From Dehalococcoidia bacterium (lineage in GTDB: Bacteria; Chloroflexota; Dehalococcoidia; Lucifugimonadales; Australimonadaceae): DNA of 64,000 nucleotides. The notes under the pieces were generated by a model that was not told the origin of the DNA, made no database searches, and saw only the letters and a program-made list of their open reading frames with translations. This document shows positions 33,980-62,730 of the stretch, piece by piece. A program made the translations under genes and the position numbers. Within the stretch, counting starts at the first letter, position 1; every line of letters starts with the position of its first letter. Where the stretch lies: assembly GCA_034423175.1 (NCBI GenBank), contig DAOUJA010000034.1:6379-70378 (forward strand), given 5' to 3'.

Positions 33980-34347
33980 AGGCTTCTCCTCGTAGCTGGA
34001 ATTCCTTGTTATCCGTTGCGATGCGTTGCATTCACTCGTAGATGGGCCTTGCTCCGGGCAACGACCGGGCCGCGCTCCGGAACGGCGCCGGTGACGGAAT
34101 GCAACGGCGTTGCAACAGGGGCAACGCGGCTCCGGCAGGGCTGCGTCCCCCGCCGACGTTCCGCCGTCACCACCCAGCGTACGCGGTCGGGGGGGCGGTG
34201 GGTAGGGGCGGATGTCGCATGTTCCAGTCGATGCATTTGGTCGCAATGACTTGCTGCCAGTGGTCGATACGACTGCTAATCTAGGGCGACCGCATCGATG
34301 AGGAGTTACCTCAACTCCGGCGCGGAACTACTTGAGAGGACTGTAGT

Positions 34348-37300
34348 ATGGCGTCCGACAACGTCAGCCTGCTCCCGTTCCGTTGCCTCTCGCTCGACCT
34401 CGAAGTCCTGAAGGACGGCAGCCGCATCCGTGCCTTCGCCGGAGTGCGCTCGGACACCAATCGTTCTTTCTCCTTCTCAGGGACCGGGCACTCATGGGCT
34501 GATGCGTTCGTTAGACTGGACCGCTTTGCCGATGGGGTGGGCTTCCTGCTGGGCCACAACCTGATCGCTTTCGATCTGCCCCACCTGCGCGCTGTGAACC
34601 CAAACCTCCGGCTGCTGCGGCTGCCTGCGGTGGATACGCTCAGGCTGAATCCTCTGGCTTTCCCCCGCAACCCCTACCACCACTTGGTTAAACACTACCA
34701 GGATGGACAGATCAAACGTGGACGCGTCAACAATCCCGAACTGGATGCAAGACTGACGCTGCAAGTACTCGAGAACCAGTTGACAGCATTTCGCGACGCC
34801 CCACCTGGCCTTCTAGCCGCTTGGCACTGGCTGACCACGGTTGAGGACGGCACCGGGTTCGACAAGGTGTTCGGATCACTGCGGGGCTTGCCTCGACCGT
34901 CCAATGCCGAGGGGCACGATGCTATACAGGCACAACTGGAAGGGAACTCCTGCCGGACGCAGGCACGTGAGGTCATGGCGCGTCCGAATGAACATGGCTG
35001 GGCCCTCGCCTACGTGTTGGCTTGGTTGTCCGTATCGGGAGGCAATTCGGTCATGCCTCCCTGGGTGCGGTATCAATTCCCTGAAGCAGGCCAACTGGTG
35101 CGCCTGTTGCGGGACACGCCCTGCGCCGACATCGACTGCTTGTGGTGCGCCGAACGGCACGACGCGCGCAAGGAACTGGCACGCTGGTTCGGGTTCAGTG
35201 GATTCCGTCCTGAGCCTGCGGACGAAGCCGGACGCTCCATGCAGCAGTCCGTCGTAGAGGCTGGGATGGCGGGGGAGCACACACTGGCCATCCTGCCGAC
35301 CGGCGCGGGGAAATCGCTCTGCTATCAGGTTCCAGCGCTGTCCCGTTACGACAAGACCGGCGCATTGACGGTAATCATCTCGCCGCTGGTCGCCCTCATG
35401 GCCGACCAGGTGGCGGGCCTGGAGAAACGGGGCATCGATTCCTGCGTCACTATCAACAGCCTCTTATCCATGCCTGAGCGAGCCGACGCTCTTGACCGGG
35501 TGCGGCTGGGAGACGCCGGGCTCCTCATCATTTCACCTGAGCAGTTGCGCAGCGTTGCCGTGCGCCGCGTTCTGGCGCAAAGGGAGATAGGCACCTGGGT
35601 GCTGGACGAGGCACACTGCCTCTCCAAGTGGGGGCACGACTTCCGGCCGGACTACCGCTACGTCGGGCGGTTCATCCGCGAGCGGGCCGGAAACGAGACT
35701 GTGCCGCCGGTGTTGTGCCTGACTGCAACCGCCAAGCCAGACGTGCAGGCGGAGATTGTTGACTACTTCCAGAGAGAACTCGGAATCGCGCTCAAGGTCT
35801 ACAACGGCGGTACTGAGCGCGCCAACCTCGAATTTACGGTGATACGGACGAGCACCAGCGAGAAGTTCGAACATATCCACCAGATCATAGAGTCCGATCT
35901 GCCGGCGCATGAACCCGGCGGAGCGATCGTCTACTGCGCAACCCGGCGGCACGCTGAACGGGTCGCCGGGTTCCTGCGTGAAAAGGGAATCCAGGCAGAC
36001 TACTTCCACGGGACATTGCCACCGGAGACCAAGAAGAACGTTCAGGAGAGTTTCATCGAGGGCGGCCTGCGCGTCATCGCCGCCACCAACGCCTTCGGCA
36101 TGGGCATCGACAAGCCGGACATCCGCCTCGTGATTCACGCAGACATCCCCGGTTCTCTGGAGAACTACTTGCAGGAAGCGGGCAGGGCAGGGCGCGACCA
36201 GCAGGCAGCTCGCTGCGTACTGCTGTACACGATGGACGACGTGGAGCGGCAGTTCGGGATGTCGGCCCATTCGCGCCTCACACGGCGGGAAGTCCACGGC
36301 GTCCTGAAAGCGCTGCGTAATCTCAACAAGAGGAACCGCTCGAACGGCGAAGTGGTGGCCACATCGGGCGAGATACTCATTGGGGACGAAGACCACGAAT
36401 TCGAGCGCGATAAGGCGACTGACGATACGCGGGTGCGCACGGCAGTAGCATGGCTGGAAGAAGCGCAACTGCTGACACGCGAGGAGAACCGCGTGCAAGT
36501 GTTCCCATCTTCCCTGCGGGTGCGTTCTCTGCAAGAAGCAAACGCCAGGCTCGCCAAGGCGCGCGTAGGGGACGCCGGCCGCCGCCAATTGCTGAAAATC
36601 GCCGAAACGCTGTTCGAAGCGGACCCGGACGAAGGCATCTCAACCGACGAATTGATGTCCGCATCCGGCCTCACTCCCGAAGGAGTACGGAGCGCTCTCC
36701 ATGACCTTGAGCGGCTGGGCATCGCCGCCAACGATACGGCCCTGACCGCCTTCGTCCACGAGAGAGTGAAGGGCAATTCCCGGCAGCGCTTCGATGAGGC
36801 GGCGGAGCTGGAGCGCGCCATGGTCGACCTCTTGCGCGAGACCGCGCCCGATATGGGGATAGGTGAAACGTCCACGCTTTATCTCCGTCAGGCGAGCCAG
36901 CGGTTGAAGGACGACGGCTACAAGAATGCTCTGCCGGAACGCTTGCGCCGCATCGTCCGGAGCATCGCTGCAGACGGTCGTGGCGACGGCGGAGGTGGCG
37001 GCAGTCTCGGCCTGCGCGGGGTGAATCGTGACGCCGTCCAAGTGACACTGCAACGCGAGTGGGGAATATTGGAGAAAACCGCAGGGTTGCGCAGGGCCGC
37101 CGCAGGGCGGCTTCTAGCCCACCTGCGCGCCTGTCTCCCTGCCGGAAGCAGAGGCACGGATCTGCTGGCTGAGACAACCGTCGGAGACCTGCTGAAGGCG
37201 CTCACCTCGGACATGACGCTGATGCAGGAAGTCAGGGAACCCAACAAGTTGATGGATCGTGCGCTGCTGTGGCTGCACGAACAGGATGTGGTCCGCCTGA

Positions 37301-39456
37301 ACAAGGGTCTTGCCGTGTTCCGCCCGGCCATGACCATCCGACTGAAGCAAGAAAGGCGCGGCTTCGCCCGGACCGATTTCGAACCGCTGAATCTCCACTA
37401 CAACGAACAGACGCTCCAGATCCACGTGATGGCGGAATACGCAGTGCGGGGCCTGACAGCCATGGCCGATGCCCTGCGCATGACCGTGGATTACTTCAAC
37501 CTGCGCAAACGGGACTTCGAGCGCCGCTGGCTGCCGGAGCGAGAAAAAGAACTCTTCCGCCAGACCACCCCTGAATCATGGCAGGCCATCGTCGAGAGCC
37601 TGAACAACCCTGTGCAGCGCAGTGTCGTAGCGGACGAAAGGGAGCAGGCCAACGTGCTGGTGCTTGCCGGTCCCGGCTCCGGGAAGACGCGGGTGCTGGT
37701 GCACCGCATCGCCTACCTCGTGCGCGCGATGCGCGAGAACCCCCACTCTATCCTCGCTCTCGCGTACAACAGACATGCCGCCGTAGATATCCGGCGCCGT
37801 TTGGCGGAACTCATCGGCGACGACGCTCGCGGCGTGGTGGTGCTCACCTGCCACGCGCTCGCCATGAGTCTTGCCGGCGCGAGTTTCACAGGGCGTGCGA
37901 ATGACCTGGACGACGCCGAATTCAAAAAGATACTCAAGGAAGCGGTGTCCCTGTTGCGCGGGGAAGGACTGCCGCCCGAGGAAGTGGACGAACAGCGGAC
38001 GCGGTTGCTCGCAGGCTTCCGCTGGATACTGGTTGACGAGTACCAAGATGTCGGCCCCGACGAGTATGCGCTGATCTCGGCGCTGGCGGGCAGGACGCTC
38101 TCCGAAGAAGACGACAAACTGAGCCTCTTCGCGGTGGGCGACGACGACCAGAACATCTATACCTTCAAGGGCGCGTCGGTGCGGTTTATCCGGCAGTTCG
38201 AGAAGGACTACGCAGCCAAACCGGTGTTCCTCACCGACAACTACCGCTCCACCAGCCACATCATCGCGGCTGCAAACGCGATAATCGAACCGGCGAAGCA
38301 ACGGATGAAGAACGGGCATCCCATTCATGTAAACCAAGTGCGTAAGAAGGAACCGCCTGGTGGCGTGTGGGTTCAACGCGATGCGGTTGCGCAAGGCCGG
38401 GTTCAGACATTGCCGGTTGGGGATTCGCGAATCTCCCAGGCGCAGGCAGTCGTCGCCGAGTTTCAGCGACTATCCAGCCTGACACAGGATTGGGATTGGG
38501 CTTCCTGCGCCGTGATAGCGCGCGAATGGAGTTACTTGGACCCGGTGCGCAGCCTCTGCGAGATCAAGGGCATCCCCGTGCAGATGTCGAACGAGGACTT
38601 CTCGGGCATCTGGCGCCTGCGGGAAACGCAGGCTCTCCTGCAGTGGGTGCACGAGCGAGACTCCCGCTTGATAACGAGCGCGGAACTGAACGACTGGCTG
38701 GAAAGGCAAACCTACGGCTCTTGGAACGAACTGCTGCTCGAAGCCGTGGGCGAGTATGCACTGGAGACCGGCGGCGCGGAAACGCCGGTAGCACACTTCG
38801 TCGAGTGGCTGGCGGAATGGGCGCGGGAGGTACGCCGCCGTCAGCGCGGGTTATTGCTGACCACTGCTTATGGCGCCAAGGGTCTGGAGTTCGACCATGT
38901 CGCGGTGCTGGACGGAGGGTGGGAGCGCGTTGAATACAGGGATGCCGATTCCCAGCGCCGGTTGTACTACGTTGCGATGACTCGCGCCCGTCAGACGCTT
39001 ACCCTTGCCCGCTTCCCGAGGCCACACCCATTCCAGGACGCCTTGCCGGACAGCCCGGCAGTGCTACACAGGGATGAACCCTTGTCGCTCCCGGCCCCCG
39101 CGCCGGAACTCACACGCACTTACCGCCGCCTCAGTCTAGGGGACGTTGATTTGGGTTTCGCGGGCCGCAAACGTTCGGCCGACCGTGTCCACCGCGCCAT
39201 TGCCTCGCTTGCACCAAGCGATCCATTGACGGTTCGCGTTCAGTCACACCCCTGGGAGCTTGTGGATTCGACAAGCACAGTGGTGGGGCGACTCGCGCAT
39301 CGCTTCGAGCCCGATGCCGGTATGCGGTGCATCGCCGCCAGCGTCCTTGCGGTTGTCACCTGGAATCACGAGATTTCAAGCCCTGAGTACCAGAGTGGTA
39401 TGCAGTGTGAATCGTGGGAGGTCGTGGTGCCAGAACTGGTATTCGAGCCTGAGTAG
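34348..39456 (+). CDS. 1702-aa fusion: DnaQ-like 3'-5' exonuclease + RecQ-family helicase + ~450-aa unknown linker + UvrD/PcrA-like SF1 helicase + ~140-aa unknown C-terminal domain
   Basis: Exonuclease motifs: LSLDLEV, GHNLIAFDLPHL, NPELDARLT. RecQ motifs: LAILPTGAGKS, LDEAHCLSKWGHDFRPDY, ATNAFGMGIDKPDIRLVIHADIPGSLENYLQEAGRAGRD. UvrD motifs: VLAGPGSGKT, ILVDEYQDVGP, FAVGDDDQNIYTFKGA, LTDNYRST, TAYGAKGLEFDHV, YVAMTRAR. Confidence 0.9.
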   Translation: MASDNVSLLPFRCLSLDLEVLKDGSRIRAFAGVRSDTNRSFSFSGTGHSWADAFVRLDRFADGVGFLLGHNLIAFDLPHLRAVNPNLRLLRLPAVDTLRLNPLAFPRNPYHHLVKHYQDGQIKRGRVNNPELDARLTLQVLENQLTAFRDAPPGLLAAWHWLTTVEDGTGFDKVFGSLRGLPRPSNAEGHDAIQAQLEGNSCRTQAREVMARPNEHGWALAYVLAWLSVSGGNSVMPPWVRYQFPEAGQLVRLLRDTPCADIDCLWCAERHDARKELARWFGFSGFRPEPADEAGRSMQQSVVEAGMAGEHTLAILPTGAGKSLCYQVPALSRYDKTGALTVIISPLVALMADQVAGLEKRGIDSCVTINSLLSMPERADALDRVRLGDAGLLIISPEQLRSVAVRRVLAQREIGTWVLDEAHCLSKWGHDFRPDYRYVGRFIRERAGNETVPPVLCLTATAKPDVQAEIVDYFQRELGIALKVYNGGTERANLEFTVIRTSTSEKFEHIHQIIESDLPAHEPGGAIVYCATRRHAERVAGFLREKGIQADYFHGTLPPETKKNVQESFIEGGLRVIAATNAFGMGIDKPDIRLVIHADIPGSLENYLQEAGRAGRDQQAARCVLLYTMDDVERQFGMSAHSRLTRREVHGVLKALRNLNKRNRSNGEVVATSGEILIGDEDHEFERDKATDDTRVRTAVAWLEEAQLLTREENRVQVFPSSLRVRSLQEANARLAKARVGDAGRRQLLKIAETLFEADPDEGISTDELMSASGLTPEGVRSALHDLERLGIAANDTALTAFVHERVKGNSRQRFDEAAELERAMVDLLRETAPDMGIGETSTLYLRQASQRLKDDGYKNALPERLRRIVRSIAADGRGDGGGGGSLGLRGVNRDAVQVTLQREWGILEKTAGLRRAAAGRLLAHLRACLPAGSRGTDLLAETTVGDLLKALTSDMTLMQEVREPNKLMDRALLWLHEQDVVRLNKGLAVFRPAMTIRLKQERRGFARTDFEPLNLHYNEQTLQIHVMAEYAVRGLTAMADALRMTVDYFNLRKRDFERRWLPEREKELFRQTTPESWQAIVESLNNPVQRSVVADEREQANVLVLAGPGSGKTRVLVHRIAYLVRAMRENPHSILALAYNRHAAVDIRRRLAELIGDDARGVVVLTCHALAMSLAGASFTGRANDLDDAEFKKILKEAVSLLRGEGLPPEEVDEQRTRLLAGFRWILVDEYQDVGPDEYALISALAGRTLSEEDDKLSLFAVGDDDQNIYTFKGASVRFIRQFEKDYAAKPVFLTDNYRSTSHIIAAANAIIEPAKQRMKNGHPIHVNQVRKKEPPGGVWVQRDAVAQGRVQTLPVGDSRISQAQAVVAEFQRLSSLTQDWDWASCAVIAREWSYLDPVRSLCEIKGIPVQMSNEDFSGIWRLRETQALLQWVHERDSRLITSAELNDWLERQTYGSWNELLLEAVGEYALETGGAETPVAHFVEWLAEWAREVRRRQRGLLLTTAYGAKGLEFDHVAVLDGGWERVEYRDADSQRRLYYVAMTRARQTLTLARFPRPHPFQDALPDSPAVLHRDEPLSLPAPAPELTRTYRRLSLGDVDLGFAGRKRSADRVHRAIASLAPSDPLTVRVQSHPWELVDSTSTVVGRLAHRFEPDAGMRCIAASVLAVVTWNHEISSPEYQSGMQCESWEVVVPELVFEPE

Positions 39457-40322
39457 ATTGACGACCTTGGCCGGAAGTACGGAGTGGCTGCGTATCCCTG
39501 TTCGGACTGCTGGCCTTCCGCCTGCGCGGGAACGACATGCGCGACATCTGCCCTTTTCGCGGTCGAGGCCCGACCGCGTACGCTGGTTGCATCCCGCTCA
39601 TCGTGAGCCTGGTCGAACCACATACGTGCAGTAGCCATAGACCGCGTTTTATGGGTCGGGGCCCGCTACACCCGCCATTGGTGCGGGTTTGATATGAAGA
39701 ACGCAGGAAGCAGGCCGTGGCCTTGTCGATATAGATCTGCTGGATGTCGAAATGCCCATTGTTCACTCGTAAGGCGCGGATCAAGAACAGCAGGAAGAAC
39801 GCGCGGCTGCGTCCGGGAGGAGAAGGGCTGCGAGGTCCCTGCCTCCGCAGGAACGACGGGGGTACCCGAGAGACGTTTCGGGTCCACTCAGCATGACAAC
39901 CCATCCTGTGCATCGATGTTGATTCCCGGATTGGTGACACGCGTCCCTTTCGCGGTCGCGGGATGACCGCGTACGCTGGTTGCATGAGCGTCGTACGTGC
40001 AGCAGCCATAGACCGCGTTTATGGGTCGGGGCCGAGCCATAGATCTGGTCTATGGGTCCGGCGCCCAACTTGTGAATTCGTTGGCCACCTTGTTCAGTTT
40101 TCGCGGGAAGCAGGCCGTGGCCTTGCGCAGAGCATCACAAGGTGGCCAAGGTGGCCAAATGAAGGGCCAGATTTACTCGTAACGCCGGCAACAAGGTGGC
40201 CAGATTGCAGGGCCGGTTGGACACCTTGCTCAGGGCTGCGAGGTTCCTGCCTCCGCAGGAACGACGAAAGAGGGCGCAGGATGGTTCGACAGGCTCACCA
40301 TGAGCGGGGCGGCCGTGGGCGG
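39457..40322. repeat. Repeat-dense intergenic region holding at least five REP families, several in two copies
   Basis: Duplicated blocks: ccctttcgcggtcg...gaccgcgtacgctggttgcat (39552 / 39944), gccatagaccgcgtttatgggtcggggcc (39633 / 40005) and gaagcaggccgtggccttg (39707 / 40107). Inverted family-A units at 39826 and 40234. ggttcgacaggctcaccatgagcgg at 40283. Confidence 0.8.
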
Positions 40323-42559: not shown

Positions 42560-42629
42560 GGTCCTTCGACAAGCTCAGGATGAACGGGACTAACCCAAGG
42601 TGAGCGGGACAAGCTCAGGATGAGCGGGC
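42560..42629. repeat. REP family with a duplicated gacaagctcaggatgaNcggg unit
   Basis: ccttcgacaagctcaggatgaacggg ... gacaagctcaggatgagcggg. A related copy is at 40283. Confidence 0.7.
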
Positions 42630-42667
42630 TTTCGTCAGTGCGGGGCGTATACTGGAGTTGGGCCGAC

Positions 42668-44170
42668 ATGCCACGACTATCCCTCACGACCCTGCTCGCC
42701 GCCGCCATCCTGATGGCAGGCTGCACCTCGACGGCCTACACGCCAGAGCCCCCGACGCCGACTCCCACGCCCGTCCCAACCCCGGCTCCGGCGCTCACGC
42801 CGACACCGGCTGCCGGGAGCACGCCCGCACCCACGCCCGAGCATCCCTACGATCCCAACGACGCGATGTGGGGCATCTTCAGCGGCATCGACCAGACGCT
42901 CGAGGGGACGCAGCGCGCCCTCGCCGACGCCGTCAGGGAGAATGACGTCTCGCAGGTGCCCATCATCGTCGAGATCATGCGATACGGAGGCGGGCCCGCG
43001 CTGGACGAGGAGTACCGGCTGGCCCTGCTGAGCCTCACCGGCCAGGACTTCTGGATCAACCCGCCGGCGTGGAACGCGGCGATGGAGTGGCTCGGCCCCC
43101 GCAGGGACGAGTTCCCTCCGCCGGACGGCTACCTGGACTGGAAGGTGAACATCCTCGGCATCATCGACCCGCGGATGGCGGCATTCTTCACGTCCGCGCC
43201 CGGCACGGAGCGTATCGACCTGACAGAGGCGGTGTGGGGCGGCGTGCGGACCGACGGCATCCCCGACCTCCAGTCCGCTCCCACGCTCTCGCCGGACGAG
43301 GCGGACTACCTGGACCCGCGGGACCGGGTCTTCGGCGTCTCGGTCAACGGCGAGCACCGCGCCTACCCGCTGCGCATCATGAACCCGCACGAGATGGCGA
43401 ACGACGTGTTAGGAGGCGAGCCGATAGCGCTCGCCTACTGAACGCTCTGCTTCACCGGAATCGTGTATTCCGCAAGAATCAACGGGGAGCCAACCACATT
43501 CGGCACGTCCGGCATGCTCTACCAGAGCAACAAGCTGATGTACGACCGCACGACGAACTCGATATGGAACCAGTTCACGGGCGAGCCGGTCGTCGGCCCG
43601 CTGGCGGACAGCGGCATCCAGCTCGACTTCTTCCCGTCCGTGCTCACGACCTGGGAAGAGTGGCTCGCCGAGCACCCGGACACGACCGTCCTGAACAACA
43701 ACACCGGGGTCTACCCGCCCTCCACCTACGCGCACGAGTGGGAGCCCCAGGCGATCTACTTCGACTACTTCGCGTCGCCGCTGACGATGTTCCCGGTGTT
43801 CAACCGGGACGCGACGTTGCACGCCAAGGAGACCGTCATCGGCGTGGGCATCGGCGGCGACCACAAGGCGTACCCGGTCTCGGCATTCCAGGAGGAGCCG
43901 GTCATCAACGACACGGTGGGCGGGCAGGAGATCGTCGTGGTGGGGTCGAGCCTGTGGGGCACCGGAAGGGTCTACGAGCGGGGCGGGCTGATGTTCGCCG
44001 AGGACGATGACGGGCTGCGGGACGCAGGGGGGGCGCTGTGGAGCGTCAGCGAGAACGCGCTGACCCGGTCAGGGGACGGGGAGACGCTGGCGCGCATACC
44101 GACGATCACGTCGTTCTGGCACGGGTGGTTCTCGTTCCACCCGGACACCGCGATCTACGGGAGCAGCTAG
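42668..44170 (+). CDS. DUF3179 lipoprotein read through one in-frame TGA (43439-43441): candidate selenoprotein, otherwise a pseudogene
   Basis: ORFs 42620..43441 and 43463..44170 share one frame and are separated only by a TGA. Signal plus lipobox: MPRLSLTTLLAAAILMAGC, then a PT-rich linker. The DUF3179 core is DGIPDL...VNGEHRAYPLRIMNPHEMANDVLGGEPIALAY-TGA-TLCFTG...FGTSGMLYQSNKLMYDRTTNSIWNQ. Confidence 0.6.
43451..43478 (+). promoter_or_regulatory. Candidate bacterial SECIS-like hairpin downstream of the in-frame TGA
   Basis: Upper stem CGGAAU (43456-61) pairs with AUUCCG (43467-72) around loop CGUGU. Lower stem UUC/GAA with an internal loop. The apical loop starts 23 nt from the U of UGA and contains GU. 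Confidence 0.4.
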
Positions 44171-44500: not shown

Positions 44501-45772
44501 TCAGGCTGCGCCCACGTACATCTTCTGCATGAGGGCGTCCTGCCAGCGGACGCTGCCGGGCAGCACCTCCTCGATGGCGCGGATGTGATAGTAGGCGTCG
44601 TTCGCGCCGACAGGGGTCCCGCCGTCCTCGACCGTGCGGGTCGCCTGCATCAGCATCTTGCGGGCAGTGATGACGGCGCGGTCGGTCTGGCCGAGGTGCT
44701 CCTGGCTGCGGTCGACGATGCGTTTCATCGCTTCCTGCACCGCCCTGTCCTGCGCGTTGATGCCCTTGATGCCGGTGAACGTGTCCGTGCGCTGGAGCTC
44801 GCGGTCGATCAGCCAGTCGTTGGCCGGGTTGCGGTGGCTGCGCCACGTCGTCTGATCGACGTCGTCGGGGCCGTTGCCGGTGGCGAGCTCGTCGCGCTCG
44901 GCCTGGGTGAGCGGCTCGTCCAGCGTGTAGAACCAGTTCCAGACCATGGTGGTCTCGTCGTCCATGGGCACCCAGTGGTGTCCGGCGATCTTGAACTTGA
45001 ACCAGGAGCCGTCGTTGTTCAGCTGCGCCGCGCGTATCTGGACGTGGGGCATCACGTAGTGGTAGGTGCGGACGTAGTTCGCGTCCTCGCCGGGCAGGGG
45101 ACGGACCGACCCGTACCGGTAGCCGTATTCCGTGAGCTCGACGTCCAGCTTGGAGGCGGTCGCTTTGGCGCGCAGGCCGTCCAGTCCCGCCGCGCCGCCG
45201 GTGCCGAACTTCCGGTGGAGGAAGGACGAGTGAACGGAGTCTATGCCGCCCTCCAGCGCCTGCAGCCAGTTGCACTCCTCGATGACCTTGGAGGCGTGCC
45301 GGTGGGTCTGCGGCTGGCGCGTGAACTCGAACGAGGGCTCAGGCGGCGTCTGCTCCTTCGGCCCCATGTACGTCCAGATGACGCCGCCCAACTCCACGGT
45401 GGGATAGGCGGTGACGCGCACCTTGCGGCTGAAGTCGAACTGAGCGGGCTCGTTGGGCATGTCCACGCAGGCACCGTCCACGTCGAACTTCCAGCCGTGG
45501 TAGACGCAGCGGATGCCGTTCTCCTCGTTGCGGCCCAGCCAGAGGGACGTGAGGCGGTGGGGGCACCACTCGCTCATCAGTCCGACGCGGCCGGACGTGT
45601 CGCGGAAGGCGACGAGGTCCTCGCCGAGGATGCGCAGGCGCAGAGGGTCGCAGTCCGGGTGCGGCAGCTCGTGGGAGATGAGGACGGGCTGCCAGTATCG
45701 GCGCATGACCTCTCCCATCGGCGTGCCGGGCCCCACACGGGTGAGTCGTTCGTTGTCCTGGGTCGAAAGCAT
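44501..45772 (-). CDS. Rieske [2Fe-2S] non-heme iron oxygenase, alpha subunit-like
   Basis: Rieske motif CPHRLTSLWLGRNEENGIRCVYHGWKF. ATG at 45772 (MLSTQDNERLTRVGPGTPMG). Confidence 0.88.
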   Translation of the reverse strand: MLSTQDNERLTRVGPGTPMGEVMRRYWQPVLISHELPHPDCDPLRLRILGEDLVAFRDTSGRVGLMSEWCPHRLTSLWLGRNEENGIRCVYHGWKFDVDGACVDMPNEPAQFDFSRKVRVTAYPTVELGGVIWTYMGPKEQTPPEPSFEFTRQPQTHRHASKVIEECNWLQALEGGIDSVHSSFLHRKFGTGGAAGLDGLRAKATASKLDVELTEYGYRYGSVRPLPGEDANYVRTYHYVMPHVQIRAAQLNNDGSWFKFKIAGHHWVPMDDETTMVWNWFYTLDEPLTQAERDELATGNGPDDVDQTTWRSHRNPANDWLIDRELQRTDTFTGIKGINAQDRAVQEAMKRIVDRSQEHLGQTDRAVITARKMLMQATRTVEDGGTPVGANDAYYHIRAIEEVLPGSVRWQDALMQKMYVGAA

Positions 45773-45916
45773 GGTTGGCTTCCTCGCGTAGGTTGGTTTC
45801 GGATGGTTGTACGCCCCGCGGGGCGGGACTGTCAACGAGCCTACCTAGCCCGCCCGAGAGATGTTTCGACTCCGCCTCTGGCTACGCTCAACATGACAAG
45901 CCCCAACTCCGAGCGG

Positions 45917-51155: not shown

Positions 51156-52037
51156 TCACGCGGAATCTCCGCCCCCAGGCGCGGAAGAGTACGCCGAGCG
51201 CGGCAGTCGCCCTGCCCTCGCCCTCGCCCGTGTTGACGATGACGAGGCCGTACCGATGAGGCCGACCGCGAGCGCCCCGGTGACCGGTTCCCGGTAGACG
51301 GTGCACCGCACGCCGAAGGCGGACTCGACAGCTTCCGGGGTCAGCACCTCCTCCGGCGTTCCCTCTGCAAGCACCCGCCCCTCGCTCAGCAGCACCAGCC
51401 GGTCGCAGTAGCGCGCAGCCATGTGCAGGTCGTGGATGGCGGCGACGGCGGTCAGGCCGTCGTCCACGAGCTGCCGCACGAGGTCCAGCACCTTGAGCTG
51501 GTGGTAGACGTCCAGGTTGGACGTCGGTTCGTCCAACAGCAGGACGCGGGGCTGCTGGGCCAGGGCGCGCGACACGAATACCCGCTGGCGCTCCCCACCG
51601 GAGAGGGTGTCGAGCGTCCTGCCGGCGAACTGCTCCGTGTCGGTCCGGCGCATCGCGTCAAGGGCGATGCGGTTGTCCCTGCCTCCCTCTATCTGGAAGC
51701 GCCCCAGGTGGGGGTACCTGCCCATGAGCACCAGCTCGAAGGACGTGAACCCCTGCGTGTACGGGGCGATCTGGGGGACCAGCGCCAGCCGGGCGGCGAC
51801 GTCCCTCGACGACATGGCCCGCAGGTCGGCGCCCTCCAGGGAGACCGCTCCGTGTTCGTGCCGCAGAATGCCGGAGAGAGCTCTCAGGAGCGTGGACTTC
51901 CCCGCTCCGTTGGGGCCGATGACGCCGACGAACTGCCCTTGCTCAATCCGCAGGCACACACCGTCCAGAAGCGTCTCCTCCTCGATACTGTAGGAAAGGC
52001 CCTCCGTGACGACCGCAGGCGGTGCTTCTTCGTACAT
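51156..52037 (-). CDS. ABC transporter ATP-binding protein (FecE/BtuD type)
   Basis: Walker A GPNGAGKST, signature LSGGERQRV, Walker B LLLDEPTSNLD. Confidence 0.88.
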   Translation of the reverse strand: MYEEAPPAVVTEGLSYSIEEETLLDGVCLRIEQGQFVGVIGPNGAGKSTLLRALSGILRHEHGAVSLEGADLRAMSSRDVAARLALVPQIAPYTQGFTSFELVLMGRYPHLGRFQIEGGRDNRIALDAMRRTDTEQFAGRTLDTLSGGERQRVFVSRALAQQPRVLLLDEPTSNLDVYHQLKVLDLVRQLVDDGLTAVAAIHDLHMAARYCDRLVLLSEGRVLAEGTPEEVLTPEAVESAFGVRCTVYREPVTGALAVGLIGTASSSSTRARARAGRLPRSAYSSAPGGGDSA

Positions 52038-52043
52038 CGGCGT

Positions 52044-53191: not shown

Positions 53192-54226
53192 TCACAGCGA
53201 GTAGACCTGTCGCTTGTTCCGGATGAGCAGGAAGATGAAGAACGGCGCGCCCACGAACGCGGTGAGGACGCCGACGCGGAACTCGGCTGGTTGGATGATG
53301 GTGCGTGCGAACGTGTCCGCCGCGGTGACGAACACCGCCCCGCCCAGCGCGCTCATCGGCACCAGCACCCGGTGGTCCGGCCCCATCAACAGCCGGAGAA
53401 CGTGGGGCGTCACGAGGCCCACGAAGGCGATGGTGCCGCTCACGGCCACGGCGGCGCCGGTGACGAGCGCGGCCGCCGTCAGCAGGATGACGCGGGCCGT
53501 CCCCACCCTGACGCCCATGGAGCGGGCCTCGTCGTCGCCCAGCGTCAACAGGTTCAGGTCGCGGGCCATCAGCATGATGACGGCGGCGCCGCCGAGGATG
53601 AGCGGCGCCGAGATGCGCACGTGTTCCCACGAGCGAGAGTCCAGCCCTCCGGCGAGCCAGAACAGCACCTCCCGGAGCGCCGCGGTGCCGGGCAGGAGGA
53701 TGATGATCGCAGAGACGATCGCGCCGAGGAACGCGTTGACCGCAACCCCCGCGAGCAGCAGCGTTGCCATGCTGAAGCGTCCCCCAACAGCGGCGATGCC
53801 GTACACGAGGAACGCGGCGGCGACCGCGCCCGCGAATGCGAAGGCAGGGAGCGCAAGGAAGAACAGTCCCGCCATGCCCGTGGCGATGGCGGCCACGGCC
53901 CCAACCGCTCCCCCGGCGGACACGCCGATGATGCCGGGGTCGGCCATCGGGTTGCGGAACAACCCCTGCATCGTCGCCCCGGCCACTCCCAGCGCGACGC
54001 CCACCGCGGCGCCGACCAGTATGCGCGGGAGCCTGATCTGCTCGATCACGAGCTGCTCGGTGCGGCTGAACCCGCCCGCCTCGATCCCCAGGAACGACAG
54101 CATGATGGAGGCGACGTGGTAGACAGGTATGCCGACAGGGCCAAGGCTGAGCGACACGACGGCGCTCGCCAGGACCAGCAGGCCCAGGACGGCAGAGCCG
54201 ATCGCCAAGCGGCTGGTTACCGCCAT
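53192..54226 (-). CDS. FecCD/BtuC-family ABC permease
   Basis: 344-aa polytopic protein with ...GAVFVTAADTFARTI...PVGVLTAFVGAPFFIFLL. ATG 54226 was chosen because the riboswitch terminator lies inside the longer ORF. Confidence 0.88.
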   Translation of the reverse strand: MAVTSRLAIGSAVLGLLVLASAVVSLSLGPVGIPVYHVASIMLSFLGIEAGGFSRTEQLVIEQIRLPRILVGAAVGVALGVAGATMQGLFRNPMADPGIIGVSAGGAVGAVAAIATGMAGLFFLALPAFAFAGAVAAAFLVYGIAAVGGRFSMATLLLAGVAVNAFLGAIVSAIIILLPGTAALREVLFWLAGGLDSRSWEHVRISAPLILGGAAVIMLMARDLNLLTLGDDEARSMGVRVGTARVILLTAAALVTGAAVAVSGTIAFVGLVTPHVLRLLMGPDHRVLVPMSALGGAVFVTAADTFARTIIQPAEFRVGVLTAFVGAPFFIFLLIRNKRQVYSL

Positions 54227-54263
54227 CCTGCGGTAGCCGCGCAACGTCGCGAGTCCAACGGCT

Positions 54264-54300
54264 ATCAAACCAAGAACCTCCAGCGTCTCTCCGCTGGAGG
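54264..54300 (-). terminator. Intrinsic terminator forming the riboswitch expression platform
   Basis: Minus strand: CCUCCAGCG-gagaga-CGCUGGAGG followed by UUCUUGGUUUGAU. Confidence 0.55.
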
Positions 54301-54367
54301 TTGGGTCCGTTCTCCGGTTGCGCCCGGCACCGAGGGACCCTCTCAAGAGCGGAGAGCGGTCACCTTT

Positions 54368-54530
54368 CGTTCAGGCAGGTCTCCTGGCTTCGCGGGAGGA
54401 TCATCCGCCGGGCCCTTCCCGTCGGCTTCTCCGACAGTGGGCTCCGGCTCCCGTTATCCCGCTTACAGTGGCGCTACCGCGGCGGACTCTCACCGCCTTC
54501 CCTATTCTCCCTGGGACGGGCACCTGAACG
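54368..54530 (-). promoter_or_regulatory. Cobalamin (B12) riboswitch aptamer
   Basis: Minus strand: P1 CGUUCAGG...CCUGAACG. Conserved GGUGCC, AGGGAA, GGUGAGAGUCC and GCCACUG, and the B12 box AGCCAGGAGACCUGCC. It lies upstream of the BtuCFD-type operon. Confidence 0.85.
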
Positions 54531-54781
54531 AACTGTGAGCGTATGTTGATCTCGATGGGGCAGGCTATGGCCCGGCCAGCGGGCTGTCAAGCAGAGCGCC
54601 GCGCGTCCGGCCTGGCCGGGCATCGCGCTTGACCCACATCACCTTTGGAAGCAGACTCCCGTATCGGTAGGCCGCAGGAGACGCTTACGGTGTTGAGGCA
54701 GCAGCCAGACATGCCCCCACCGCAAAGGAGTGACCGATAGCAACCGACGCCAGAGGCGCGAACGCCGGCTCGAAGTGGGCA

Positions 54782-57151: not shown

Positions 57152-57344
57152 GTGCCGGATTCTACGTCATGCCCGGCAGGGTAAGCTTCATGGAGCTTGT
57201 CCGTGTGCGCTCGTGAGCGTTGCGGGCACTTGATGCCCGCCGTGCAGACTCTCGCTGGCAGTCGTGTCCGGGTAGTCGGTCGATGATGATAGCATTCGTG
57301 CCATGTCAGCCCCATGACCGCTGACGAAAGAGAGCATCGTTCCG

Positions 57345-58757
57345 TTGAACAGCACCGGTTCTCGGCACTATGACGCGGCGATAATTGGCGCTGGCCCAGT
57401 AGGTAGCCTGTGCGCACTCGCCTACGCGCGCAGGGGTGCCCGGGTAGCCCTGTTCGAACAGAACCCCACCGAACATCAAACAGGACTGAAGGGCGAGTGG
57501 CTGCATCCACCCGCCTCGCGGATACTGGAACAGACCGGGGTCCGTTTCGATTCGGAGGCCCACGCCACCAAAGGGTTCGTGGTGTTTCCGGAGGATGGCT
57601 CTGAGCCAATCCCGCTGACCTACCCGGACGGGTCGCACGGCCTGGTATGCCCGCACGAAACCCTCGTCTTGCGTCTGCGCGAGGCTGCCAATGACGAGCC
57701 CAACGTCGACCTCATACAGGCGCGGGCCTACCCGCTCCATGACGGCAGGGTCACCTACGGCCGGGACGGCACCCGGGAATCCGTGACCGCAGACCGGATC
57801 GTCGGCGCAGACGGCCGATCGTCCGCCGTGCTGCGAATGTTGGGGCTGACAACAAAGCCCACGGTCTGTTCGCGCATGATAGGAATCAGGGTGAACGGAG
57901 TGAAGTTGCCCGCGGACGACTACGGGCACATCTTCTGTGGCGGCCCCGGCCCCATATTCATGTACAGGTTGGGAGAGGACAGCGTTTGCGCCATTATGGA
58001 TATCCCGCGCGAATACTCGGGCCGTCACGCCGACGGCCTGTTGTTGAATTCGTATATCCCCTGGCTGCCGCCGGATATCAGATCGTTGTTCGTGGAAGCG
58101 GTGCGCAAGCGGCGCTTCAAGCGCGCCGGAAACATGATCAGACCGCGCATCTCGTACGGTAACTCGCGTTTCGTTGTTATCGGCGATGCGGTCGGGCACT
58201 ACCATCCGATGACGGCGGTGGGACTGACCCTCGGTTTCGGCGATGCCGTGGCGCTGGCGGAGAGCGAGGACTTCAGCGGTTTCGTCGCCAGGCGCTTCGA
58301 GGAGGTCCGCGCGCCCGAGATGCTTGCCATGGGGTTCTATGAGGTATTTGCCGATCATCGGGCCGAGGCAGTGGCGCTCAGGCATGCGGTCTATCGGATA
58401 TGGAGGAAGGGCGGTGGGAACACCGATCGCAGCATCCGTTTGCTCGCTTGTGAAGATACGTCAGAGGCCAGTCTGGGCTTCATCGGCGGCATAGTGGTTG
58501 CCCTGGCTGTTGCGAGAGCGATTCCGATGTCCATGAGCCCACGCGCCTGGCGCCGGGCAGGCGGCATCGTTCATCGCCTTGCCCTTCGCATCGGATGGTT
58601 CATGAGGGCCGTTTGCGAACTACGCAGATTGAGAGCCAGAGGCGAAGTTCGGCACGAGCGATTCCATGGCAGCCTGGAGCGTGCCTTTCTGACCTCCACG
58701 CCACCCCAGGGCCGCTTCAGCCAACCGCGTGACCAGGAGCATGCCGGTGCACCCTGA
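57345..58757 (+). CDS. FAD-dependent monooxygenase, squalene epoxidase-like
   Basis: IIGAGPVG. GEWLHPPASRIL resembles GELLQPGG. VGADGRSS. GDAVGHYHPMTAVGLT resembles GDAxNMRHPLTGGGMT of squalene epoxidases. TTG start. Confidence 0.78.
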   Translation: MNSTGSRHYDAAIIGAGPVGSLCALAYARRGARVALFEQNPTEHQTGLKGEWLHPPASRILEQTGVRFDSEAHATKGFVVFPEDGSEPIPLTYPDGSHGLVCPHETLVLRLREAANDEPNVDLIQARAYPLHDGRVTYGRDGTRESVTADRIVGADGRSSAVLRMLGLTTKPTVCSRMIGIRVNGVKLPADDYGHIFCGGPGPIFMYRLGEDSVCAIMDIPREYSGRHADGLLLNSYIPWLPPDIRSLFVEAVRKRRFKRAGNMIRPRISYGNSRFVVIGDAVGHYHPMTAVGLTLGFGDAVALAESEDFSGFVARRFEEVRAPEMLAMGFYEVFADHRAEAVALRHAVYRIWRKGGGNTDRSIRLLACEDTSEASLGFIGGIVVALAVARAIPMSMSPRAWRRAGGIVHRLALRIGWFMRAVCELRRLRARGEVRHERFHGSLERAFLTSTPPQGRFSQPRDQEHAGAP

Positions 58758-60681
58758 TGCCCATTCCGCCTTGAGGATGGCGACCGAGGGCTTGCTGCAC
58801 CTCCAGGATGAGGATGGCAGCTTTGAGGGTGAAGTGGTGTGGTGCCCCATGCTCTCCGCGCAGTACGTGCTGCTGCACCATATCCTCGGCCGTCCGCTCG
58901 AGCCCGCCCGCCGCCGCGGCGTGTTGCGCTACTTCCAGCGGTCCCGCCTGGAAGGAGGCCTGTGGAGCCTCCACGAGCACGAACCGCCCAGCCTGTTCGT
59001 CACTGCACTGGTCTACGTCTCGGCCAGATTGCTCGGCGTCGAGCGGGAGGACCCGTTGATCGAACCGGCTCGGCGGTTCCTGCAGAAAGAGGGAGTCCTC
59101 GGGATCCCCACCTGGGGTAAGTTCTGGCTGGCGCTTCTCAATCTCTACGACTGGCGCGGCGTCAATGCCATCCTGCCGGAGGTGTGGGGCCTGCCCCGTT
59201 GGATGCCGTTGCATCCTTCGCATTGGTACTGCCATACGCGGCTCATCTACATGGGAATGGCATCCCTTTACGCGCATCGCTTCCAGGCGCCCGTAACGCC
59301 CCAGATCGCCTCCATAAGAGAAGAGCTGTACCCCCAGGGGTTTGCCGACGCCGATTTCGCTGCGAGCCGCAATCGCCTGCGCGACGCCGACCTGCACACC
59401 AGGCCAAGCGTGTGGCTCCGCGCCGGGTTCGGTCTCGCACGCCTCTTCGATCGGTTGCACAGCAAGCGCCTGCGCGCCCGCTACCTGGAGGCGATCGTCC
59501 GCAGCATCAGATGGGAGCTTCAGACCACCAACCATACGAGCATATCTCCCGTCAGCGGGATACTGAACATCCTTGTCCTGTGGCTGCGCGACCCCGAAGA
59601 TGCCGACGGACTCCGCGCCCTCGCACAGTTGGACCGCTGGATCTGGGAAGACGACGAGGGAGGGTTGCGCGTCTCCGGGGCCAGAAGCGCCTCCTGGGAT
59701 ACTGCCTTCGCCTTGCAAGCGCTGTCGACGGCGTCCGAACTCGACGGGGTCCGCGATGCGCTCCGCAGCGGGGCGAACTACCTTCGCGGACAGCAGATCG
59801 GCATCAGCTTCGAAGGGTATCGAGAGGCCTATCGGAACGACCCCAACGGCGGCTGGTGTTTCGCCGCGGGGTGGCACGGCTGGCCGGTGACCGACTGCAC
59901 CGCCGAGGCGGTCCTTGGGCTTCTCTCTGCCGACAGGGACGCAGCGGACGAGACGGCACTGGGCGACGCGGTCCGGTTCATGCTGCGGGGCCAGAATCGA
60001 GATGGCGGTTTCGGCACGTACGAAGCGCAGCGCAGCGTGGTTGGCCTCGAGTGGCTGAACCCGGCCGAGATGTTCGGGGACTCCATGACGGAGCACTCCT
60101 ATGTCGAGTGCACCGCCTCTTGTCTTGCGGCCCTGGCGGCTTGCGGAGAGCGCTTCCCCCGGGTCATCGGCCAGGCGGAAACCAGGGCCATCTCACGGGC
60201 CGACGCATGGCTACGCCGCGCCCAGGAGCGAGACGGCTCCTGGCGCGGGGTATGGGGCGTTCAGTTCATCTATGGCACGTTCTTCGGGATAAGGGGTCTG
60301 CTTGCCGCTGGCGCTCGTCCTGACGATCCAGCCCTGCGCTCGGCCTGCCAGTGGCTACTGGACCGTCAACGGGAAGACGGGGGATGGGGCGAGCACTACC
60401 GGGGTTGCTACACCGGCCGGTACGTCGCGCACGAAGAGGGCCAGGTCATCCAGACGGCGTGGGCAATGATCGCGCTCCTCGAGGCGGGCGCCACGGACTG
60501 GAACGCGATCACGCGGGGCGCTCAGTTCCTCGCAGGCATGCAGAGGGAGGACGGGACATGGCCCAGGCAGGACATGGCCGGGATATTCTTTCGCACCGCA
60601 CTCCTGGACTACGCGCTGTATCGCCAGTATTTTCCCCTGCATGCTCTCGGTCTCTACGCGCAGCGCCGCCTGGCAGACTAG
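58741..60681 (+). CDS. Oxidosqualene cyclase (lanosterol/cycloartenol synthase family)
   Basis: Catalytic motif WHGWPVTDCTAE (DCTAE, not the DxDDTA of squalene-hopene cyclases). QW-type repeats (RDGSWRGVWG, EDGGWGE, EDGTWPR). AGGAG lies before ATG 58741. It overlaps the epoxidase gene end. Confidence 0.88.
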   Translation: MPVHPDAHSALRMATEGLLHLQDEDGSFEGEVVWCPMLSAQYVLLHHILGRPLEPARRRGVLRYFQRSRLEGGLWSLHEHEPPSLFVTALVYVSARLLGVEREDPLIEPARRFLQKEGVLGIPTWGKFWLALLNLYDWRGVNAILPEVWGLPRWMPLHPSHWYCHTRLIYMGMASLYAHRFQAPVTPQIASIREELYPQGFADADFAASRNRLRDADLHTRPSVWLRAGFGLARLFDRLHSKRLRARYLEAIVRSIRWELQTTNHTSISPVSGILNILVLWLRDPEDADGLRALAQLDRWIWEDDEGGLRVSGARSASWDTAFALQALSTASELDGVRDALRSGANYLRGQQIGISFEGYREAYRNDPNGGWCFAAGWHGWPVTDCTAEAVLGLLSADRDAADETALGDAVRFMLRGQNRDGGFGTYEAQRSVVGLEWLNPAEMFGDSMTEHSYVECTASCLAALAACGERFPRVIGQAETRAISRADAWLRRAQERDGSWRGVWGVQFIYGTFFGIRGLLAAGARPDDPALRSACQWLLDRQREDGGWGEHYRGCYTGRYVAHEEGQVIQTAWAMIALLEAGATDWNAITRGAQFLAGMQREDGTWPRQDMAGIFFRTALLDYALYRQYFPLHALGLYAQRRLAD

Positions 60682-60693
60682 GCGCGGGCGGCC

Positions 60694-62730
60694 TCAAACC
60701 CGGACCTCATGCCGCCTTTCCTTGATGACGAACTTGACTTTCTTGCTGAGGGACAGCGTCGGAAAGGGGCTGATGCGCAGTCTGGCGTCCGGTGGCGACA
60801 GATCGAACGTGAAGTGGTGCGCCAGCATCAACACGTTGAGAGCGATGTGCATCTCGGCCCAGCGGCTGCCTATGCACTTGTGGGTGCCCAGGCCGAAGGG
60901 CGCATAGCCCGGACTGAAGTGCTCGTTGCGCGGCGGCAGATAGCGGTCGATGTCAAACGTGAAGGGGTCCGGAAAAGCGTCATCCATGTAGTGCGAGGCG
61001 CTCTGGGCGATCACCACACGCGCGCGCAGTGGGAGTTCATAGCCCTGGACGTTGCAGGTGTTCATGACATTGCGCATCGTGAAGGCGGTAATGGGTGTCA
61101 GCCGCAGGGCCTCCATCAGCACGCGGTGTGTGACGTCGATCCTGTCCGGCCTCAGGTCTTCACCGGCAGGGTCGCCATCGGCGAACAGTGCGTCGGCCTC
61201 CGCCTGCACACGCCTGTAGATGTCGGGGTTCGATGCCAGGTAGAAGAAGATGAAGCTGATCATGTCAGCGAGGTACATGCCGGTCAGCAGCGCGGTCCCG
61301 AGCGGAAAGCCGAAGTCGGTTTCCGGGAGGAACTGCGGGTCGTTGGCATGGAGGGCGAAGAAGCCGTCGACGACGTCCGGGGGGGCGCCGAGGCGCTGGG
61401 CCGGGGTGTGGTTGGCCTCGATGCGCTCGACTATCTGTTGGTTCAGCTTCGCACGGCGCTTCATCTTCGGCGTCTTCAACATGAACTTGGGTAAGAGGCC
61501 CGCGACGTGAGTGAGGAGCGCGCGCTCCTTGAATTGCAGGAGGTCTTCGACCACCTCCTGGGTCTCCTGGCTGACCAGGAGCGGGGACATCTGTGCATTC
61601 ATGTACAGCCGGAGCACCGACCTGGCATGGATGACGTCGCCGGCAGCCCACGACGACAAGTGCCGGCGCGCGTTGTGATAGACCTCGTCGAGGCGGCGGA
61701 CCAAGGTATCAGGCGAGTATGAGGACCTCAGAGCCTTGCGAAAGCGGAAATGGTCGGCGCCATCGGTGGAATGTATGGTGCGGGAGACGCCGTACGCCGC
61801 CTCGATGCTGGCCAGATACTCCTTGGAGCGCAGGTACAAGCGGCCATTCCGGTGGATCCAGCGGTTCACTTCGGTCCCGGCGAGGAAGATGTAGGACTTC
61901 TTCGAAAACGGGGGGCGCAGCTCAAACACCGGTCCATACTGCTTGGCGAGGTCGGCAAAGAGGGCCGGGAGGTTGCCGGACCTTACGTGGCGATTGAACA
62001 GCATCTTGCGTAGAGAGATGCGCGGGATCTTCTTCGTGAGGGGCGAGCGCCGCAGGTGGAACCCGGTGATGTTGCTACTCACCGCCTCGCTGATGGAGCG
62101 GGCGATGACGTCCATCTGGCAGACCAACTTGACGCGCTGCCCGGCCTCCTCGTCGAGGGGCAGGATAGAGTGAATGACATTGCAGGCGTTGAGGAGGGCG
62201 ATCGTAATGACGTCGCGGGGGTCAGGGATATCGCCCCCGAGGATGACGCCGTGGATGCGCGTTCTGATGAAGGCAACTCCGTCGCTGTTGCGGGCATCCG
62301 CGCGTGCCTCTATCTCATAAGCGGTGCGCGCCAAGGTCCAGAAGTCACCCTCGTGGTACTCCAGGAACTGGAGCCGGACCAGGTCGTTGAGCACGAGGTC
62401 GACGATCGTTTCCGCTTGTGGGACGAGCCGCTCGATCCAGTACTGCGTGCTGTGTTGTTCCGGCTCGCCGGCGATCTCCTCCAGGATGGGGTCCAGGATG
62501 GGTGAGCCGGTCGGAGTTCTGTCGTTGAGGAACAGGGATTCTGTGTCGGTGTCGATGCGAAATCGGAGGGAAAGTTCTGCCAGCACGGCCCCGATGATGG
62601 TGCAATTGAGGCTCCAGCCCGGCACCTGGTGAAAATAGCCGCTTTCCTCATTGAGGAGCATCAGCACCAGCTCTTCAGGCAGGGAGAGAGAATGGTGGTT
62701 GATCGTGCTCGAAGCTGAACTCGTCATCAC
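60694..62730 (-). CDS. Fusion protein: N-terminal GPP34/GOLPH3-like domain plus a cytochrome P450
   Basis: aa 15-215: LPEELVLMLLNEESGYF...IIGAVLAELSLRFRI...PILDPILEEI (GPP34 pattern). aa 250-678: P450 with ExxR (EALR) and heme loop FGLGTHKCIG. Confidence 0.88.
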   Translation of the reverse strand: MMTSSASSTINHHSLSLPEELVLMLLNEESGYFHQVPGWSLNCTIIGAVLAELSLRFRIDTDTESLFLNDRTPTGSPILDPILEEIAGEPEQHSTQYWIERLVPQAETIVDLVLNDLVRLQFLEYHEGDFWTLARTAYEIEARADARNSDGVAFIRTRIHGVILGGDIPDPRDVITIALLNACNVIHSILPLDEEAGQRVKLVCQMDVIARSISEAVSSNITGFHLRRSPLTKKIPRISLRKMLFNRHVRSGNLPALFADLAKQYGPVFELRPPFSKKSYIFLAGTEVNRWIHRNGRLYLRSKEYLASIEAAYGVSRTIHSTDGADHFRFRKALRSSYSPDTLVRRLDEVYHNARRHLSSWAAGDVIHARSVLRLYMNAQMSPLLVSQETQEVVEDLLQFKERALLTHVAGLLPKFMLKTPKMKRRAKLNQQIVERIEANHTPAQRLGAPPDVVDGFFALHANDPQFLPETDFGFPLGTALLTGMYLADMISFIFFYLASNPDIYRRVQAEADALFADGDPAGEDLRPDRIDVTHRVLMEALRLTPITAFTMRNVMNTCNVQGYELPLRARVVIAQSASHYMDDAFPDPFTFDIDRYLPPRNEHFSPGYAPFGLGTHKCIGSRWAEMHIALNVLMLAHHFTFDLSPPDARLRISPFPTLSLSKKVKFVIKERRHEVRV

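Follow-up and report, generated by a model that had tools for sequence, protein, structure and literature searches.

A probable selenocysteine codon and a covarying downstream hairpin in a DUF3179 lipoprotein gene of Chloroflexota

Does the TGA codon at 43439-43441 of the DNA studied here end a protein, or is it read as selenocysteine (Sec)? The DNA, referred to below as the window, is a stretch of 64,000 nucleotides from a Dehalococcoidia bacterium (contig DAOUJA010000034.1, positions 6,379 to 70,378) with a G+C content of 67%, and at 42668-44170 it carries a gene for a lipoprotein of the DUF3179 family. As an earlier note on this sequence had described, two open reading frames (ORFs), 42620..43441 and 43463..44170, share one frame with a single TGA between them, and the read-through peptide is indeed as that note quoted it. 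In the public protein collection (NCBI, ENA) the gene is stored as two proteins, one of 257 amino acids from 42668 and one of 218 amino acids from 43514. We show here that these two entries are a wrong split of one lipoprotein gene. Judging by the conservation of codon, frame and downstream hairpin, the TGA is very probably decoded as Sec, a reading to which we assign a probability of roughly 0.92.

The in-frame TGA and its homologues

The features of the gene, all on the plus strand, are given here, those of the hairpin further below.

42668..44170 (+): complete predicted selenoprotein gene, encoding a DUF3179 lipoprotein precursor; 500 codons including one putative Sec codon, stop TAG at 44168-70.
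42654..42657 (+): Shine-Dalgarno-like GGAG, 10 nt 5' of ATG 42668, read from the sequence.
42668..42724 (+): lipoprotein signal peptide with lipobox L-M-A-G-C at its end; cysteine (Cys) codon at 42722-24.
42725..42841 (+): Pro/Thr-rich tether after the lipidated Cys, seen in the translation; orthologues have this low-complexity linker after their lipobox as well.
42842..43252 (+): N-terminal all-helical domain ahead of the Pfam domain and itself without a Pfam match; helices 68-185 in an AlphaFold2 model of the homologue P0001.
43253..44149 (+): DUF3179 (PF11376) domain in one stretch, E = 6.4e-76, 256 bits (cutoff 27).
43439..43441 (+): predicted Sec-encoding TGA, the U of U-T-L-C; a Cys column in homologues, TGA in orthologues.
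43448..43450 (+): partner Cys codon TGC of the UxxC motif; a Cys column in homologues.

Throughout 42668-44170 the only internal stop is this TGA, and the likely start, ATG 42668, agrees with that of the recorded 257-residue protein. Residues Sec274 and Cys277 are counted from 42620 and correspond to residues 258 and 261 from ATG 42668, from which Cys19 is counted. A lipoprotein signal, also noticed earlier, is present: by a pattern test only, the signal peptide MPRLSLTTLLAAAILMAG precedes the lipobox Cys. The same test finds a lipobox and hydrophobic stretch in 39 of the 43 Sec-type sequences introduced below, and two of its four misses (L018, L035) show a lipobox by eye.

That the TGA sits at the conserved Cys of DUF3179, giving a UxxC motif, is borne out by the homologues. 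When the read-through protein was searched with Cys substituted at the TGA, the PF11376 match extended over residues 212-510 (profile positions 2-292 of 292), thus spanning the TGA at residue 274. Among the 120 best protein homologues (about 50% identical, around 540 residues long, all with PF11376), the TGA column holds Cys in 114, Ser in three, Asp in two and Trp in one, and the column three residues further on is Cys in 115, the motif being A-Y-C-T-L-C-G. No full-length homologue above 52% identity was found in this protein search, which suggests that the genes of close relatives are also split in the databases.

At the nucleotide level such relatives are plentiful. A first scan with one genome per species returned 44 loci, nearly all from SAR202/Dehalococcoidia/Chloroflexota metagenome-assembled genomes (MAGs), several of them sponge bins. 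Of the 43 loci that align across the site, 42 have TGA at this codon, with protein identities to the window of 49-87%, and the single alphaproteobacterial locus has TGC. A second scan, seeded with a Cys-type homologue and with the site mapped by tblastn, added 80 loci. In both scans together the same codon is TGA in 93 loci and TGC or TGT in 30, the leftover codons coming from low-identity secondary alignments and one paralogue. Each of the 93 TGA loci belongs to a different species-representative genome, all of them Chloroflexota, mostly SAR202/Dehalococcoidia and many from sponges, and many of the loci sit on closed chromosomes. The comparison proposed earlier, namely whether orthologues keep the TGA together with a hairpin, therefore has a clear outcome, since these 93 other genomes carry both at the same place, with compensatory changes in the hairpin.

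Both halves of the gene had been described as intact, and the relatives agree with this. In the first set of 43 Sec-type sequences, the frame 3' of the TGA stays open for 242-267 codons without a further stop, and the partner Cys codon is TGC or TGT in all 43. The ratio of nonsynonymous to synonymous substitution rates (dN/dS) is 0.16-0.42 downstream of the TGA versus 0.18-0.55 upstream, so that purifying selection acts on both sides of the codon, and about equally. Elsewhere in the window TGA is an ordinary stop, for example that of thiL, whose product matches its equivalog model to the last position.

A stricter scan of the window for other selenoprotein genes, by in-frame TGA, returned only 43439. 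Two further same-frame TGA junctions are each a boundary between adjacent genes: that at 18745-47 (+) lies between a DRTGG protein and a glutamine amidotransferase, that at 31799-801 (-) between mnmA and rnhB.

The hairpin downstream of the UGA

43456..43472 (+): SECIS-like (selenocysteine insertion sequence) hairpin, 6-bp stem CGGAAU/AUUCCG and 5-nt loop CGUGU; it begins 14 nt, and its loop 20 nt, after the UGA.
43451..43478 (+): extended stem-loop with a 3-bp lower stem (43451-53 with 43476-78), present in the minimum free energy (MFE) fold of the window.

Of the stem-loop put forward in the earlier note, the 6-bp stem, the CGUGU loop and the spacing expected of a bacterial SECIS (bSECIS) element stand, and they are joined by compensatory changes in relatives. 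The lower stem fares differently, being present in the window's MFE fold but absent from the orthologue consensus structure, and it is probably not essential.

The codons that encode the hairpin are remarkably uniform. In the 43 Sec-type sequences codons +7 (ATC), +8 (GTG), +9 (TAT) and +10 (TCC) after the TGA are each identical in 43 of 43, leaving no synonymous variation at these four positions, and neighbouring codons vary freely. Codon +9 is TAT in every case although TAC prevails elsewhere, and codon +6 is GGA or GGG, never the preferred GGC. The Cys-type clade L045-L059, which shares 74-78% identity with the window along the 121-residue probe that served to map the site, has GGC/GGT/GGA, ATC/ATA/ATT, GCC/GCA/GCG, TAC/TAT and AGC/CAC/TCC at the hairpin codons, and no common hairpin was found there. 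Relatives with Cys at the site thus combine free codon variation with the lack of a hairpin.

RNAalifold on the 43 sequences yields a 7-bp hairpin as its sole consensus structure. The seventh pair (alignment positions 17 and 35) is G-C in 19, C-G in 15 and C.C in nine sequences, the window being among these nine; its flanking C43455 and C43473 are mismatched, where most orthologues have a G-C or C-G pair. In a second Sec clade (18 loci) the sequence at the identical register is GCGCGAU-CGGGU-AUCGCGC, which encodes A-I-G-Y-R instead of G-I-V-Y-S, and in three further loci U-A replaces C-G at pair 18-34. In an alignment of 85 sequences, four of the seven hairpin pairs show compensatory changes on both sides, 94.6% of the cells are paired compared to 22-63% when the partner is slid, and the covariation score is reached by no shuffle. 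Moreover, a third clade of nine loci carries another 6-bp hairpin, GGC(A/G)UC...GA(U/C)GCC, located 2 nt further downstream and with a compensatory pair of its own. On the evidence of these alignments, the hairpin is constrained as RNA, with covariation.

The geometry also agrees with the published bSECIS model, which has a loop of 3-9 nt, a stem of 4-16 bp, a G in the first two loop positions, a UGA-to-loop distance of 16-37 nt and an MFE of at most -7.5 kcal/mol (PMC13188914). The window element has a loop of 5 nt with G at position 2 followed by U, a stem of 6 bp (7 bp in most orthologues) and a spacing of 20 nt. As to energy, only the longer 62-nt fold reaches the limit of the model, the window hairpin alone does not.

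Decoding as selenocysteine and its rivals

How might the UGA be read? In the mechanism that we propose, the hairpin that begins in the mRNA 14 nt 3' of the UGA (43456-72) would serve during translation as a bacterial SECIS element and recruit SelB-GTP-Sec-tRNA(Sec), so that the ribosome would insert Sec rather than terminate. The full precursor would then be exported, lipidated at Cys19 and tethered by the Pro/Thr-rich linker, and Sec274 and Cys277 would form a U-x-x-C pair on a beta-hairpin turn. While the unity of the gene and the conservation of codon, frame and hairpin are observed directly in the alignments, the actual insertion of Sec, and its chemistry, are what we infer from them.

Several results weigh against this. 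The window hairpin alone has a folding energy of only -4.4 to -5.1 kcal/mol, being the weaker variant with the C.C mismatch at the seventh pair (orthologue hairpins alone reach -7.3 to -7.8 kcal/mol), and the 62-nt fold of -13.1 kcal/mol is no better than that of shuffled sequence (z = -0.58). As such, thermodynamics alone do not single the hairpin out, and it exceeds chance only because of the comparative evidence. No SECIS-like Rfam family matched, either over the whole window at the gathering threshold or in a permissive scan of 43300-43650. Furthermore, neither the 64-kb window nor the fetched flanks yielded selA, selB, selD or a tRNA-Sec gene: about 45 genes of the window, annotated with Pfam and NCBIfam, included no SelA, SelB or SelD, a phmmer search with an approximate E. 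coli SelD sequence matched only the ThiL neighbours, and ARAGORN detected no tRNA in the window and no tRNA-Sec in the flanks of the 44 loci. On the side of function, Foldseek gives no significant structural match and no operon partner is conserved across clades. Regarding tRNAs, the only one found in the fetched flanks is a tRNA-Ser(GGA), at five loci of one subclade (L026-L029 and L035), where it lies about 100-300 nt 3' of the selenoprotein gene; it is not a tRNA-Sec.

Published data on related genomes speak to the machinery. According to Slaby et al. 2017 (PMC5649159), sponge-symbiont bins show an enrichment of the SelA and SelB COGs (clusters of orthologous groups), and Table S4 of that study gives SelA/SelB/SelD counts of 1/1/1 for bin16 and 4/1/1 for bin127, both SAR202 (accessions MPMJ and MPNN, respectively). 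Two of our TGA-bearing loci, L012 and L094, belong to the genomes of bin16 and bin127, respectively. In BSepDB, the ten bacteria richest in selenoproteins include two Dehalococcoidia MAGs, which carry 49 and 46 selenoprotein genes (PMC13326102).

That no Sec machinery was found directly in the source genome, within the window, would also fit a UGA decoded without selenium, be it by read-through or by reassignment, with Trp, Gly or Cys supplied by near-cognate or suppressor decoding and the hairpin as a generic stimulator of read-through, and one homologue does have Trp in the TGA column. Yet many ordinary genes of the window end in TGA, in line with the standard code, recoding falls precisely on the Cys of a CxxC motif, the hallmark of Sec/Cys pairs, the hairpin fits the geometric criteria of bSECIS elements, and SelA, SelB and SelD are reported for the two orthologue-bearing genomes just mentioned; we therefore regard decoding without selenium as quite unlikely. 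Less probable again is a split gene, in which translation ends at the TGA and starts anew at GTG 43463 or ATG 43514 to make the C-terminal part as a chain of its own, the two polypeptides perhaps associating. The GTG is invariant in hairpin variant A, and the databases record the 218-residue product from 43514. Such a break, however, would cut a single Pfam domain within a beta-hairpin and would pair an exported lipoprotein with a second part that has no signal peptide. No Shine-Dalgarno sequence precedes either GTG 43463 or ATG 43514, all Cys-type homologues are single chains, and in hairpin variant C the GTG is GGG, so that no start is conserved there.

We must also take into account that a nonsense mutation could have killed a Cys-type DUF3179 gene and left the downstream ORF to decay. 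A lone in-frame stop does divide the gene, gene callers annotate two fragments, and several conserved columns right after the TGA differ in the window from the Cys-type consensus, with F in place of G at +4, for instance. These departures are common to whole clades, however, and coincide with the hairpin. An identical TGA in 93 other species-level genomes, the intact frame in 43 of 43 sequences and a downstream dN/dS equal to that upstream make a pseudogene extremely improbable. As for a sequencing or assembly error that changed TGC to TGA, the two codons are one base apart and nothing else is in its favor; since the site reads TGA in 93 further assemblies, which stem from several projects and technologies and include closed chromosomes, its probability is practically nil. 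Taken together, the conserved TGA, the open frame, the dN/dS values and the ordinary TGA stops mean that pseudogene, error and code reassignment are excluded or very unlikely, and decoding of the TGA as Sec is the reading that we carry forward.

The protein, its surroundings and known systems

Going by the conserved lipoprotein signal and the tether, the mature protein is membrane-anchored, on the outer face of the cytoplasmic membrane. The AlphaFold2 model of the Cys-type homologue P0001 (mean predicted local distance difference test score, pLDDT, 86.6; predicted template modeling score, pTM, 0.84) consists of a helical domain at the N-terminus and, after it, the DUF3179 body, which is rich in beta-structure, and its residues 1-59, the tether region, are disordered with a pLDDT below 50. 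C-T-L-C (residues 263-266) lies at a strand end and the following turn of this model, and the Protein Data Bank holds no relative by sequence. From the U-x-x-C pair and its location, Sec274 and Cys277 would be either a selenenylsulfide redox couple or a selenolate/thiolate pair of metal ligands outside the membrane, and our confidence in any specific biochemical function is low. It is conceivable, if doubtful, that the pair is not a redox center of the thioredoxin type but a selenolate/thiolate site on the beta-hairpin knuckle of a Rieske-like beta-domain, lipid-anchored outside the membrane. Were that the case, it would be a distinct extracytoplasmic selenium site, that is, a metal- or chalcogen-binding or unusual redox center, widespread among the SAR202 bacteria of sponges and systematically overlooked, since annotation leaves the gene in two fragments.

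Two observations concern the history of the domain. When the first beta-subdomain is used as a tblastn query, many loci return secondary hits of 22-29% identity some 507 nt further downstream (e.g. 2362 versus 2869 in L047), which suggests that DUF3179 arose by internal duplication. In L061 a second DUF3179 paralogue, around position 3985, lies 1.7 kb downstream of the Sec-type copy and has D-V-Q-T in place of U-T-L-C, both redox residues being lost.

To one side of the gene lie thiL, tsaE and tsaB, to the other the genes of a Rieske oxygenase and of an MmgE/PrpD protein, in opposite orientation; these neighbors are unrelated to it and differ between clades. In L044 (CAZQVD010000003.1, about 2800-3350) the Rieske oxygenase gene comes directly after thiL, and all that is left of the DUF3179 gene is a C-terminal stretch of 22 residues, a sign that the gene was lost from a syntenic site. 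In the window, the intergenic region between thiL and the DUF3179 gene contains, shortly before the start of the latter, a direct repeat, CAAGCTCAGGATGA(A/G)CGG, at 42570-42587 and 42610-42627, 40 nt apart, with a third, diverged copy at 39594-39611 (-); three matches compare with 0.02 expected by chance, and the repeat could be an element like the repetitive extragenic palindromic (REP) ones or a regulator site.

Further away, 57318-63998 (and also 44501-45835) holds an apparent sterol-synthesis cluster in this SAR202-type genome, with a squalene epoxidase (PF08491), a cyclase, a cytochrome P450 fused to a GPP34 domain and an MMPL/sterol-sensing-domain transporter. The best model for the cyclase is the 2,3-oxidosqualene cyclase TIGR03463, with 725 bits (below the 851-bit cutoff) versus 281 bits for hopene cyclase. 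Since the G+C content at third codon positions (GC3) is 0.74-0.80 in these genes and about 0.9 elsewhere, the cluster may have been acquired. The Rieske oxygenase adjoining the DUF3179 gene gives a weak hit, far below cutoff, to the sterol 4-beta-methyl monooxygenase SdmA. A cobalamin riboswitch at 54357-54542 (-), scoring 99.9 bits, is directly upstream of a FecCD-type permease gene (53192-54370, -), and the same strand carries, further downstream, an ABC ATPase gene (51156-52043, -); the whole resembles an uptake operon under B12 control. Finally, a 1706-residue ORF at 34336-39456 (+) combines DEAD/Helicase_C and UvrD-type helicase domains and has a GC3 of 0.75, below that of its neighboring genes.

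The practical value of the present case is the correction of an annotation, as the gene of the window's own genome is recorded as two truncated proteins. The other 93 genomes probably share this split mis-call, so that a conserved exported selenoprotein goes unseen. A single site with three hairpin variants, whose amino-acid changes follow the base pairing, makes for an unusually clean SECIS comparison that is useful for training selenoprotein predictors, and the case adds to the evidence of heavy selenium investment by SAR202 and sponge-symbiont Chloroflexota. No new question is opened by it, since family and mechanism have already been described. Only on novelty did the earlier note err: "DUF3179 domain-containing protein, UxxC/T" is listed as a selenoprotein family in two reviews, PMC9312934 (example MBW1804167.1) and PMC13188914 (example MDJ0986319.1), both of which credit it to Zhang & Gladyshev 2007 (NAR, i.e. 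Nucleic Acids Research, 35:4952; PMC1976440).

How, then, does the locus compare to known systems? With the catalogued DUF3179 selenoproteins it shares the Pfam domain, a single predicted Sec in U-x-x-C (U-T-L-C, 43439-43450) and Cys homologues at the same position. The catalogue traces the family to work on the deltaproteobacterial symbionts of a gutless worm, whereas the proteins described here come from Chloroflexota (SAR202/Dehalococcoidia), have about 500 residues and carry an additional helical domain at the N-terminus as well as a lipoprotein anchor. Like bacterial SECIS elements (the bSECISearch consensus model, with E. coli fdhF as prototype), the hairpin is located in the coding region right 3' of the UGA and has a small apical loop with G then U at loop positions 2-3, an upper stem of 6-7 bp and a UGA-to-loop distance of 20 nt, whereas it differs in having no sequence similarity to the fdhF element, no Rfam match, a mismatched seventh pair and low stability on its own.

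Thioredoxin-fold oxidoreductases (DsbA-like, thioredoxin-like) likewise have a Sec/Cys pair two residues apart, which in those proteins is the redox center. The DUF3179 motif, by contrast, is at a strand end and turn rather than at the N-terminus of a helix in the P0001 model, so that this is not a thioredoxin fold, and Foldseek returned no thioredoxin-fold hit. Rieske-type and NirD-type beta-folds show a weak local resemblance, with Cys in loops at the tip of a beta-structure; the only suggestive local hits of Foldseek, to a Rieske ferredoxin and NirD, are 2qpz (with a probability of 0.89 and a TM-score on the target of 0.56), 4aiv and 2jo6, none of them significant (E >= 0.19). The CxH...CxxH cluster-binding motifs of Rieske proteins are absent, the DUF3179 domain containing only C-x-x-C, and we do not assign it to the Rieske [2Fe-2S] proteins. 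The case, sound and ordinary, falls within a selenoprotein family that is already known and that uses the standard bacterial mechanism; what is specific to it are the SAR202/Chloroflexota hosts, the long lipoprotein architecture, the split annotation and an unusually clear SECIS covariation, which leave its kind unchanged.

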